Positions 19,150 through 21,345 of a stretch of DNA of 26,789 bases are shown piece after piece (the first letter of the stretch is position 1; the number at the start of each line of letters is the position of its first letter). A model generated the notes under the pieces. It was not told the origin of the DNA, searched no databases, and saw only the letters and a list, made by a program, of their open reading frames with translations. The stretch comes from a virus (lineage: Duplodnaviria; Heunggongvirae; Uroviricota; Caudoviricetes). The stretch is from positions 110,629-137,417 of the IMG/VR virus record IMGVR_UViG_3300003155_000137; one strand, 5' to 3'. Position numbers and translations under genes: made by a program.

Positions 19150-20352
19150 CTACCCCCGATTGTCGGTCGGTTCTTTCACGTTATGAGTTGTTTGGCTTAT
19201 TCGCAATGCTTCGTCCCGGATGTTCAATGCGGCATTGACATCCCGGTCGTGCCATGCCCCGCAGTGTTCGCAGACCCATTCGCGCTCCGAGAGTCTCAGT
19301 CCCTCGTATTTGCGCCCGCAGTCGTGGCAGAGTCTGGAACTTGGGTAGAACCTGTCCACTTGGACGAACGTACGACCATACCATTCCGCCTTGTATGCGA
19401 GCTTGTCCATGAACCCTCGCCACCCGTCTCGTAGGATGGCATGGTTCATCACGCGCTTGCGTGACTGTCCGTTGCGCATCGGCTTGCCGTCCGCGTCGAG
19501 CTTCCTTCTCGCGCGTCGAGTCATGTTCCGCACCATCAGGGTCTCCATGCCGATGAATTGGTTCTCTTCTATCAGCCTGCGGGACGTCTGATGCTGGAAG
19601 TCCTCACGGTAGTGGCGCAGTCTCGCGTACGCCTTGGCGACGGCTTGTCTCTGCTTGCGGTAGTTGCTTGAGCCTTTCCTCCTTCGTGAGAGCTTCCGCT
19701 GCTCGCGTCTGACGTTCACCTCCAGTCGGCGCAGACGGTCGGGGTAGTCGATTTTCTCCCCGGTGGAGAGCGCGATGAAGTCCTTGACACCCACGTCGAT
19801 GCCGACCTGTCCTTCGACGGGTGGCTTGGGTTGGATGTCCACGTCGAACAGGAGCACGAGATAGTATGTCCGGTTCTCCCGTTTCACCGTCCAACTGGAT
19901 AGCGATTCGATCGGGTAGCGTAGCTTATCGCGTCTGCGAATGCGCACCGAGCCGAGCTTCCTGGACAGGGGATACCGGTTGCCTTCCATGCGGCGCATCG
20001 GCGCAGTGTTGCGGAACGACTGGACGTTGTCATGCCGGGATGCGAACCGGGGACGGTTGCGGGCGTACTCCGACTTGCGGAAGTACGCCGCCCGCGCTTT
20101 ACGGAAGTCCATGATGGCGTTGCTCAATGCGTTCGACGGAATCGGACTGTCTCTCAGCCATTCGTTCGCCCGCTTCATGTCCGTCACGTTCGGATAAACG
20201 GGTTTCGGATTGGTCTCCTTGTTGAACGTGTTGAACGCCTCGACCTGCTGGTTGTATGCGAAACGTCTATCCCCGAAGCATCGTTCCAACAGTGCCGCCT
20301 GCGTCTTCGAGGGCTTGAAGGGAATGCGTTGTGCGACCTTGCGAACCGTCAT
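19150..20352 (-). CDS. tnpB: RNA-guided endonuclease TnpB
   Basis: N-terminal HTH (KPSKTQAALLERCFG). RuvC residues present: GIDVG, GMETL, DRDVNAALNI. Zinc finger CHDCG/CEHCG. ATGA overlap with the tnpA stop. Confidence 0.92.
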   Translation of the reverse strand: MTVRKVAQRIPFKPSKTQAALLERCFGDRRFAYNQQVEAFNTFNKETNPKPVYPNVTDMKRANEWLRDSPIPSNALSNAIMDFRKARAAYFRKSEYARNRPRFASRHDNVQSFRNTAPMRRMEGNRYPLSRKLGSVRIRRRDKLRYPIESLSSWTVKRENRTYYLVLLFDVDIQPKPPVEGQVGIDVGVKDFIALSTGEKIDYPDRLRRLEVNVRREQRKLSRRRKGSSNYRKQRQAVAKAYARLRHYREDFQHQTSRRLIEENQFIGMETLMVRNMTRRARRKLDADGKPMRNGQSRKRVMNHAILRDGWRGFMDKLAYKAEWYGRTFVQVDRFYPSSRLCHDCGRKYEGLRLSEREWVCEHCGAWHDRDVNAALNIRDEALRISQTTHNVKEPTDNRG

Positions 20353-20468: not shown

Positions 20469-20507
20469 TCAGTGCCGTAGACCGATTCGTATTGTCGAAC
20501 CGGCCGG

Positions 20508-20592
20508 CGGATGGTGCAGGATTCGGACCTGCGGAACCTCTCGGTTCACCTGTTTTCAAGACAGGCGCGTTAGACCGCTCCGCCAACCATCC
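20508..20592 (-). tRNA. trnS: tRNA-Ser(UGA)
   Basis: Acceptor GGAUGGU/ACCAUCC, anticodon arm CCUGU-CUUGAAA-ACAGG, long variable arm GAACC-GAGA-GGUUC. CCA not encoded. Confidence 0.92.
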
Positions 20593-20869
20593 ATGCCTGA
20601 CTTTCTCTCCGGCCGCTCAGGCTACGACCCGCACGTACACCGGCTTCACATGATCCACCGGCGCGTGGAGAGTGGCGGGAGAGCGGATTGGGTTTTACCG
20701 CCAGCGTCGAGGACAACGGTGCCTGTCGTATGCACCCTCTGGACGTGCCATCCGTTCAGGCCGCTAAGCCAAAGTCCGCTAAGACCCGGATGCGCCTTAC
20801 CCCCACCGTTCCGACGGGGTATTCGGCCACTCCCATGACGATGGACGGGTCGTCACCCATCCACCATCG
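20593..20869 (-). ncRNA. Candidate structured ncRNA between tRNA-Arg(UCU) and tRNA-Ser
   Basis: Nested 9-bp helices and twin UUAGCG-loop hairpins. Wobble pairs work only on the minus strand. No credible ORF. Confidence 0.55.
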
Positions 20870-20942
20870 TGCCCCGAGCCGGACTCGAACCGGCAACACG
20901 CGGATTAGAAGTCCGCTGCTCTATCCGTTGAGCTACCGAGGC
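20870..20942 (-). tRNA. trnR: tRNA-Arg(UCU)
   Basis: Cloverleaf with GCGGA-CUUCUAA-UCCGC anticodon arm and T arm GCCGG-UUCGAGU-CCGGC. Confidence 0.93.
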
Positions 20943-20945
20943 AGT

Positions 20946-21109
20946 GACGGCTCCGCACCGGGATTCGCACCCGGACGGGCCTTCGATCCGTTTGCAGCAG
21001 GCGCCCATCGTGTGCATCCACGACGTGTCTCCTGTGTCAGCCCCTTCGGATGCGGTAGTGCTATAGTATGCCGCATCCTGGAATGACTTTTCCACCATAC
21101 GGAGCCGTC
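20946..21109 (-). ncRNA. Candidate tRNA-like ncRNA between the two tRNA-Arg genes
   Basis: 12-bp closing stem next to a CCGGG-UGCGAAU-CCCGG T-arm, plus internal hairpins. Confidence 0.55.
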
Positions 21110-21110
21110 G

Positions 21111-21183
21111 TGCCCACGAGAGGAATCGGACCTCCGACACCCGCTTTAGGAGAGCGGTGCTCTATCCACTGAGCTACGTGGGC
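21111..21183 (-). tRNA. trnR: tRNA-Arg(CCU)
   Basis: Cloverleaf with CCGCU-CUCCUAA-AGCGG anticodon arm. Confidence 0.92.
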
Positions 21184-21271
21184 AATGGGTGGTGGATTGA
21201 TGTCGAACCGCATCATCGAGTGTGGGCAAACGACCTGCTTGACGCGGACGAAGGCATCGCACCATCACCAG

Positions 21272-21345
21272 TGGGCTCGGCTGGGCTTGAACCAGCGACC
21301 TGCATTTTATAAGAATGCTGCTCTAACCTACTGAGCTACGAGCCC
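21272..21345 (-). tRNA. trnI: tRNA-Ile(UAU)
   Basis: GGGCUCG/CGAGCCC acceptor, A73, anticodon arm GCAUU-CUUAUAA-AAUGC. Confidence 0.9.

Follow-up and report, generated by a model that had tools for sequence, protein, structure and literature searches.

The 276-nt spacer between two tRNA genes in the array of a phage from chicken-gut metagenomes is a member of the manA RNA family (Rfam RF01745) rather than a new class, and it falls in the same subfamily as a copy already published from a Bifidobacterium megaplasmid. Our preferred reading, which we hold to be likely, is that of a GC-rich manA RNA that keeps the family's core fold, is released by tRNA processing in a Bifidobacterium-like host, and possibly acts as a self-associating scaffold. 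Below, "the window" is the whole stretch of DNA analyzed (26,789 nt), the final 26.8 kb of a 137,417-bp IMG/VR virus record, 59% G+C.

Family membership of the spacer RNA

A permissive cmscan search returned a full-length match to manA on the minus strand (20672 to 20855; 53.6 bits; E = 1.2e-12; model positions 1 to 192 of 192), 1.6 bits below the Rfam gathering cut-off of 55.2 bits, which is an operational threshold and not a biological feature. The preliminary description of this locus had recognized no RNA class here and had named a hit to a known family as the finding that would speak against it; the manA match is such a hit. Searching the whole 137-kb genome repeated the match (E = 3.6e-14), with none in 14 control genomes. 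Three alleles of the spacer from other chicken-gut metagenomes (~90 to 97% identical) score above the cut-off (60.9, 57.9, and 57.2 bits), and two further alleles score 41 bits.

The manA core letters found in the spacer by cmscan alignment (GGGAGUG, CCGAAUA, UAAGG, GGUAAAACCCAAUCC, and CUCCC) compare with a family core consensus of GGGAGUG, (C)UGAAUAA, UAAgG, GGUA...AAUCC, and CCuCCC. Across nine alleles GGGAGUG, CGAA, UAAGG, and GGUAAAA are unchanged, and the differences within the core are the U of GAAUA, two P7-loop bases, and the first C of CUCCC (in two alleles). The helix sequences differ from the cyanophage consensus. The three-hairpin manA junction with loops GUGGUG, GNRA, and uaACCA is absent: the spacer has two hairpins, and the cmscan alignment shows a deletion in place of the third. 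We treat the three-hairpin junction as a subfamily trait and not as a defining one, because it varies in other sub-threshold variants and because a recent preprint calls it peripheral and variable (bioRxiv 10.64898/2026.07.01.735769).

The manA motif was found in T4-like cyanophages and marine metagenomes and was rated a riboswitch candidate by Weinberg et al. in 2010 on the grounds of its complex junction and its 5′-UTR positions (PMC2864571). Its Rfam type is "Cis-reg," and the family structure covaries in 18 cyanophage sequences. In the window the RNA does not occupy a 5′-UTR position before a protein-coding gene; tRNA genes lie on both sides.

Locus and genomic setting

At the start of the virus record stand ~21 consecutive G residues, and the sequence immediately after them recurs as the last ~45 bases of the record, which suggests that the assembly is circular or circularly permuted and that the G run is an artefact. 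PHROG matches describe a large tailed phage (baseplate wedge, NrdD, NAD-dependent DNA ligase, Rnl1-type RNA ligase) that also carries several homing endonucleases and an IS605-type TnpB. Public sequencing runs from 11 studies contain the stretch; they are metagenomes of chicken gut or faeces. The host is probably Bifidobacterium-like, given the megaplasmid homologue described below, the 59% G+C, and the chicken-gut source.

ARAGORN called only the four flanking tRNAs in the array (Table 1) and none in the spacer, and an Rfam scan up to an E value of 10 gave no tRNA-clan match (RF00005 or YrlA, RF02553) within 20593 to 20868. A protein-coding reading of an 81-codon open reading frame on the plus strand (20593 to 20838) was rejected: allele lengths differ by 1, 2, 5, and 9 nt (275, 276, 277, 281, and 285 nt), so there is no conserved reading frame.

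Two features of the surrounding array vary among alleles. In the window tRNA-Ser is followed directly by an IS605 OrfB/TnpB gene (19150 to 20352, minus strand), whereas most alleles have tRNA-Leu(gag) and a 209-aa gene there, with TnpB further on or elsewhere; the position of the insertion sequence is therefore variable. The first tRNA of the array (21271 to 21345, minus strand) has anticodon TAT (Ile) in the window and in many alleles and CAT in others (within L283 to L291), where the call is Met and an Ile2-type tRNA is possible. The anticodon of this tRNA is polymorphic inside one phage lineage.

Table 1. Features of the tRNA array and of the manA spacer RNA (positions in the window)
Feature	Position	Strand	Basis or remark
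tRNA-Ile(tat)	21271-21345	minus	ARAGORN, Rfam
tRNA-Arg(cct)	21110-21183	minus	ARAGORN, Rfam
tRNA-Arg(UCU)	20869-20942	minus	ARAGORN and Rfam tRNA, 65.5 bits; 3′ end sets the 5′ end of the spacer RNA
tRNA-Ser(UGA)	20506-20592	minus	ARAGORN, Rfam; 5′ end (RNase P site) sets the 3′ end of the spacer RNA
manA spacer, 276 nt	20593-20868	minus	Between tRNA-Arg(UCU) and tRNA-Ser(UGA)
P1, 14-bp hairpin, GACG loop	20837-20868	minus	MFE fold; begins at the first base after the tRNA
5′ core strand AUGGGAGUGGCCGAAUA	20820-20836	minus	cmscan alignment to RF01745 consensus uGGGaGUGaCUGAAUAA
P2, GGGAG/CUCCC, closes the whole domain	20834-20830 with 20681-20677	minus	manA helix
P4 hairpin CCCCGUC-GGAAC-GGUGGGG	20801-20819	minus	Fold and alleles
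UAAGGCG with P3 3′ half	20793-20799	minus	Matches consensus UAAgGug
P5 junction CAUCCG/CGGAUG	20749-20792 (20792-20787 with 20754-20749)	minus	Variable peripheral module
Twin hairpins, both with loop UUAGCG	20786-20773 and 20770-20759	minus	Inside P5 junction
P6, conserved outer helix strands CACGUCCAGAG ... UUGUCCUCGACG; inner hairpin GGUGC/GCACC	20703-20747	minus	
P7 hairpin GGCGG-UAAAACCCAAU-CCGCU, then CUCCC (P2 3′ strand)	20677-20702	minus	
3′ tail, ~84 nt, up to tRNA-Ser	20593-20676	minus	Outside manA model

Fold of the spacer RNA

A structured noncoding RNA on the minus strand, placed for release by processing of the flanking tRNAs, had already been proposed for this locus, and this part of the proposal holds. 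Every quoted motif lies where it had been placed (the spacer itself measures 276 nt), the minus strand folds to a lower minimum free energy (MFE) than the plus strand (−119.1 versus −100.3 kcal/mol), and P1 contains G·U pairs. The minus-strand MFE is unremarkable for its composition (z = −1.08), and chance long-range helices are common: 40% of dinucleotide shuffles contain long-range 9-bp helices like those first proposed, and 21.5% contain two or more. Thermodynamics alone therefore does not establish an RNA here, and the support comes from homology and covariation instead of folding energy. Forcing the homology-derived pairs gives −113.6 kcal/mol, 5.5 above the MFE, and the unconstrained MFE favors the earlier 9-bp register over P2/P3.

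The two long-range helices of the preliminary description fare less well than its local ones. Its closing helix (20845 to 20853 with 20624 to 20632) is complementary, yet it competes with the 14-bp P1 (20868 to 20837), which carries six compensatory pairs; a common change among alleles, G23A, puts an A·C mismatch in the former and converts U·G to U-A in P1. Its inner helix (20826 to 20834 with 20668 to 20676) is an alternative register of GGGAG/CUCCC with two mismatches in three of the nine alleles.

P1 pairs spacer bases 1 to 14 with bases 19 to 32, and its GACG loop is the family's conserved GAcg loop. All P1 cells in the allele alignment are paired (100%), 6 of its 14 pairs are changed on both sides across alleles, and two other P1 sequences (one in alleles L287 and L290, one in the megaplasmids) likewise fold as hairpins. 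The conserved GAAUA lies in the 5′ core strand along with the 5′ strand of P2 (GGGAG) and the 5′ half of P3 (GC); the core strands on either side of P4 follow the patterns GUG-NN-CGAAUA and UAAG-NN-G. All nine alleles share GGGAGUG, CGAA, and the P3 pair, and GAAUA is the reading of the window copy, with GAACA in the other eight. The P3 pairs vary by source: G-C/C-G in the window, a-u/C-G in cyanophages, A-U/U-A in the megaplasmids. In P4, pair 54/64 reads GU, UU, CU, or CG among the alleles, and the megaplasmid P4 is another stem with a GAAA loop.

The junction CAUCCG/CGGAUG with its two inner hairpins (GGUC-UUAGCG-GACU and GGC-UUAGCG-GCC), as described from the sequence, is real and corresponds to the multi-hairpin junction of manA; its closing helix covaries. 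The inner hairpin of P6 is replaced by GGGAUC/GAUCUC in megaplasmids. The P7 region matches consensus GugGGUA..AAUCCcaCCuCCC; its G·U pair becomes G-C in seven alleles, and its stem is GCUGG/CCAGU in megaplasmids. In the 3′ tail, the first hairpin comes in either of two forms depending on the allele, whereas the last one (stem GCCUGA/UCAGGC, with CUGAGCGG and the GAGCGG motif) is present as had been noted and unchanged in nine alleles. The fold of the tail is not unusual (z = −0.16).

Alleles and covariation

A sequencing-run search found that many chicken-gut runs contain about half of the words of the stretch, which indicated that alleles exist. We gathered them through the 90% cluster of a neighboring Orn-like protein and obtained nine distinct spacer versions that are 80 to 97% identical. 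Wherever an allele has the manA spacer, tRNA-Ser(tga) follows directly; in some alleles the upstream tRNA is tRNA-Glu(ctc), not tRNA-Arg(tct), with the tRNA-Ser(tga) neighbor unchanged. The RNA is dispensable: allele L273 lacks it, as do two more distant relatives and five related phage records that are complete or nearly so.

Covariation was assessed on an alignment of the nine alleles (A2) with the homology-derived structure. In this structure 95.4% of cells are paired, compared with 33 to 48% when partners are slid by one to three columns, and nine pairs are changed on both sides. The covariation score (0.200) exceeds that of shuffles (0.151) and was reached by none of 500. P1 in L287 and L290 is rebuilt from unrelated sequence with six compensatory pairs; elsewhere, C-G becomes G-C in P5, G·U becomes G-C in P7 and P2, and G·U becomes C-G at P4 pair 54/64 in one allele.

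The peripheral hairpins behave differently from the core. The twin UUAGCG hairpins occur in six of the nine alleles; at the same place L274, L287, and L290 have GGGCUG-GAAC-CGGCCC and GGU-UGGUG-ACC, with P5 adjusted, and outside this module the RNA is ~95% identical. The junction hairpins of the megaplasmid copies form a third pair, CCC-GGCA-GGG and GGU-UUGCG-ACC. The hairpin pair is thus a swapped peripheral module, and the identical loops are a trait of one lineage and not a conserved motif. By inspection, loops of the cyanophage consensus are complementary to one another (GUGGUG with ACCA, CUGU with ACAG), and a search of the window RNA for loop-loop complementarity (UUAGCG against unpaired stretches; UUGG against CCAA of the P7 loop) gave matches of only 3 to 4 nt, to which we attach no weight.

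Relatives in cyanophages, megaplasmids, and metagenomes

The window RNA shares with cyanophage and marine manA the core strands GGGAGUG, GAAUA, UAAGG, GGUA..AAUCC, and CUCCC and the helix order (P1, P2 closing the domain, P3, P4, junction, P6, P7). It differs in G+C content (59 to 63% versus 33 to 40%), in having two junction hairpins instead of three and missing the GUGGUG, GNRA, and uaACCA loops, in the length of P1 (14 bp versus ~6), in an extra 3′ tail of ~84 nt, and in habitat (gut versus marine). Its position between tRNAs is found at just 2 of ~119 cyanophage-type loci sampled.

Two cyanophage-type manA RNAs (L110:163-433, minus strand, and L113:64-344, plus strand; 124 and 113 bits) lie flush with a tRNA gene or end 6 nt before one. 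Three marine metagenome contigs carry sub-threshold manA matches of 47 to 49 bits (L260:1099-1289, minus; L261:380-570, plus; L263:582-772, minus) in which the 5′ and 3′ core strands are kept and the central part is different. These marine variants imply that the family is wider than the Rfam cut-off admits.

Further relatives outside the phage are on plasmids. A 178-bp manA motif within a tRNA array has been published from the Bifidobacterium breve megaplasmid pMP7017, where it was found from transcriptome data and given coordinates 122,656 to 122,830 (PMC10832533); the presence of the motif in such an array is therefore already known. Searching the spacer against PLSDB matched only pMP7017 and three B. 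longum megaplasmids (76 to 78% identity over 92 nt, spacer bases 102 to 193), and these megaplasmid homologues are the only DNA-level relatives found besides the phage alleles. Three Bifidobacterium megaplasmid copies score 41 to 48 bits against manA; tRNA-Phe and tRNA-Arg(acg) flank the RNA, which starts 17 nt past the upstream tRNA and has a tail of ~135 nt. When folded segment by segment, P1, P3, P4, P5, the inner P6 hairpin, and P7 of the megaplasmid copies have other letters and are still paired. The pMP7017 and B. longum copies share with the window RNA the two-hairpin junction, the P7 loop AAAACCCAAU, the sub-threshold Rfam score, and a tRNA-array location in which a long 3′ tail separates the RNA from the next tRNA. 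They differ in residing on a conjugative megaplasmid and not a phage, in their Phe and Arg(ACG) flanks and longer tail, in the sequences of P1, P3, P4, P5, and the inner P6 hairpin, and in their junction loops (GGCA and UUGCG). The megaplasmid arrays (L312 to L314) comprise 16 to 19 tRNAs and a tmRNA, and one of the B. longum plasmids encodes a CTA-anticodon tRNA (labeled "Pyl" by ARAGORN) that may be an amber suppressor.

Other searches added little to this set. A first pattern scan of IMG/VR gave ~120 loci, almost all low-GC and cyanophage-type; high-GC matches from the scan, such as L016, are not manA and were set aside, and pattern scans for GC-rich relatives gave chance matches only. The scans missed the alleles because these read GAACA, not GAAUA. 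Metagenome and genome scans for relatives yielded nothing beyond marine variants or marine MAGs, a blastn search of isolated phages with the array as query matched tRNAs only, a related-locus search by the Orn-like protein found nothing, and exact-protein look-ups (the 217-aa Orn-like form and the RNA ligase) led only to the source sample. Relatives of the baseplate protein come from low-GC phages with a syntenic tRNA array, in which there was neither manA nor a match to the spacer. In one of these low-GC relatives, G003, the tRNA-Arg(tct) gene is apparently split by an insert of ~1 kb bearing an open reading frame (L252:308-1345); the insert may be an intron with a homing-endonuclease-like gene, and ARAGORN makes no tRNA call there.

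Possible expression and predicted release

Metatranscriptome contigs from two studies, 168 nt (20675 to 20842, word depth 49) and 180 nt (20677 to 20856) in length, cover essentially the manA domain, whereas DNA contigs continue through both sides of it. These RNA contigs are a weak hint that manA is expressed. The 3′ ends of both lie where alleles of the L283 and L284 types diverge and may therefore be assembly breaks and not RNA ends. RNA contigs left the tail, TnpB, and the coding flanks uncovered, from which we draw no conclusion, and no circular end-to-end joint was seen among the contigs, a result that speaks neither for nor against circles. A low-depth DNA contig that joins 20593 to 20881 through 104 other letters was discarded, as it looks like the tRNA neighborhood of another organism.

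The spacer would be cotranscribed with the phage tRNA operon, and its position suggests that host RNase Z-type cleavage or trimming, together with RNase P, would cut it out. The product would be a free, stable RNA of ~276 nt, or of ~190 nt if the tail is trimmed. Because the RNA is always directly upstream of tRNA-Ser, tRNA processing should free it, which favors a stand-alone RNA over a riboswitch; manA here looks like an RNA in its own right and not a 5′-UTR switch. A parallel lies in the tRNA cluster of phage T4, which includes two stable RNAs that are not tRNAs, species 1 and 2 (rnaC/rnaD), freed by tRNA-processing enzymes. We draw this parallel as a functional analogy only and claim no relation in sequence or structure.

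Candidate functions

The manA RNAs described in the preprint reportedly share a core, differ in their peripheral helices, and self-assemble in vitro; they come from Photobacterium and marine sequences and form pentamer-based oligomers and RNA-only cages in vitro, held by kissing loops (L5-L7′, L8-L9′, L3-L8′) and a GNRA-receptor contact (bioRxiv 10.64898/2026.07.01.735769). These RNAs, seen by cryo-EM, belong to the same Rfam family as the window RNA and combine a constant core with a differing periphery, as do the alleles here. They differ in their kissing loops: no matching loop complementarity is evident in the window RNA. By homology, a folded and possibly self-associating scaffold RNA would be the likeliest mode of action, with the variable module (in this allele, the twin UUAGCG hairpins) speculatively providing a contact or specificity surface.

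On the original annotation of manA, the RNA would instead be a cis-acting riboswitch or leader that responds to a ligand and regulates the downstream tRNA-Ser and TnpB gene. Both the Rfam type and the 2010 rating of the family (PMC2864571) favor it, and an alternative 9-bp register, GGGAGUGGC/GCCACUCUC, could in principle be the switch helix. That register, however, is weakened without compensation in three of the nine alleles, and the junction, where a ligand pocket should be conserved, varies wholesale. The next feature is a tRNA and not a protein-coding gene in all phage alleles and in the megaplasmids, the TnpB gene is missing from that place in most alleles, and the minus strand downstream of the domain shows no terminator-like or SD-sequestering element. 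With neither a coding gene nor an expression platform downstream, we consider a riboswitch unlikely. A multivalent protein-binding or decoy RNA acting through repeated UUAGCG or GAGCGG loops, the function first suggested for the identical loops, is to our mind very unlikely. An 8-mer, CUUAGCGG, does occur in two hairpin loops 16 nt apart, the terminal hairpin again contains GAGCGG, and the second junction hairpin of the megaplasmids has a similar loop (UUGCG). The loops are nevertheless the part that is not conserved, while the core is kept: other hairpin pairs take their place in L274, L287, and L290 and in the megaplasmids, and presence in six of nine alleles leaves a conserved multivalent motif unsupported. 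No data indicate a protein partner; some protein may bind the conserved manA core.

It is also conceivable, if highly improbable, that the spacer has no function in trans and is a structured processing spacer or a decayed tRNA-gene remnant that merely resembles manA. The unremarkable MFE z score, the dispensability of the RNA in related phages, and AGCGG-type motifs that, by our own observation, recall tRNA D-loops would all suit such a remnant. It would leave unexplained a full-length match to a curated model (E ~ 1e-12), core nucleotides common to marine cyanophages and Bifidobacterium elements, and compensatory changes in nearly every helix, and no tRNA model matches within the spacer up to an E value of 10. 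An extension of the scaffold idea that we regard as improbable makes the two-hairpin module an allele-specific assembly code: excised RNAs would self-associate through the hairpins, or be circularised by the phage's Rnl1-type ligase, to form an RNA particle or scaffold of like alleles only. The ligase gene lies 4.4 kb downstream of the manA RNA, the excised RNA would have the 5′-phosphate and 3′-OH expected from RNase Z and RNase P, and the sequence itself hints at such a code only through CUUAG, a quasi-palindrome present in both loops.

More broadly, manA is an intricately folded phage RNA of wide distribution, and these copies extend its family to gut phages, probably infecting Bifidobacterium, and to Bifidobacterium megaplasmids. 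In these elements it forms a separate gene within tRNA operons, a placement that speaks against annotating it as a riboswitch. The natural alleles, in which the peripheral pair is swapped and the core kept, provide a ready-made variant set for tests of assembly or partner specificity.

Other structured spacers in the tRNA arrays

A second spacer of the window, 167 nt between tRNA-Arg(cct) and tRNA-Arg(tct) (20943 to 21109, minus strand), is a candidate for an unclassified structured or tRNA-like RNA. It folds to −82.4 kcal/mol (z = −5.68; none of 200 shuffles as good), with a 13-bp terminal helix that starts at the first base past the upstream tRNA and a T-arm-like CCGGG-UGCGAAU-CCCGG beside the 3′ strand. 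Neither Rfam nor the plasmid search gave a match to it. The spacer is 98% conserved in seven alleles, with two compensatory pairs, and its counterpart is absent or short (40 to 67 nt) in L273, L309, L294, and L296. In L273, which has no manA RNA, a 341-nt spacer without an Rfam match takes its place between tRNA-Arg(tct) and tRNA-Thr (L273:3690-4030, plus strand; −143.9 kcal/mol; z = −4.54). The arrays suggest that structured-RNA cassettes are exchanged within them.
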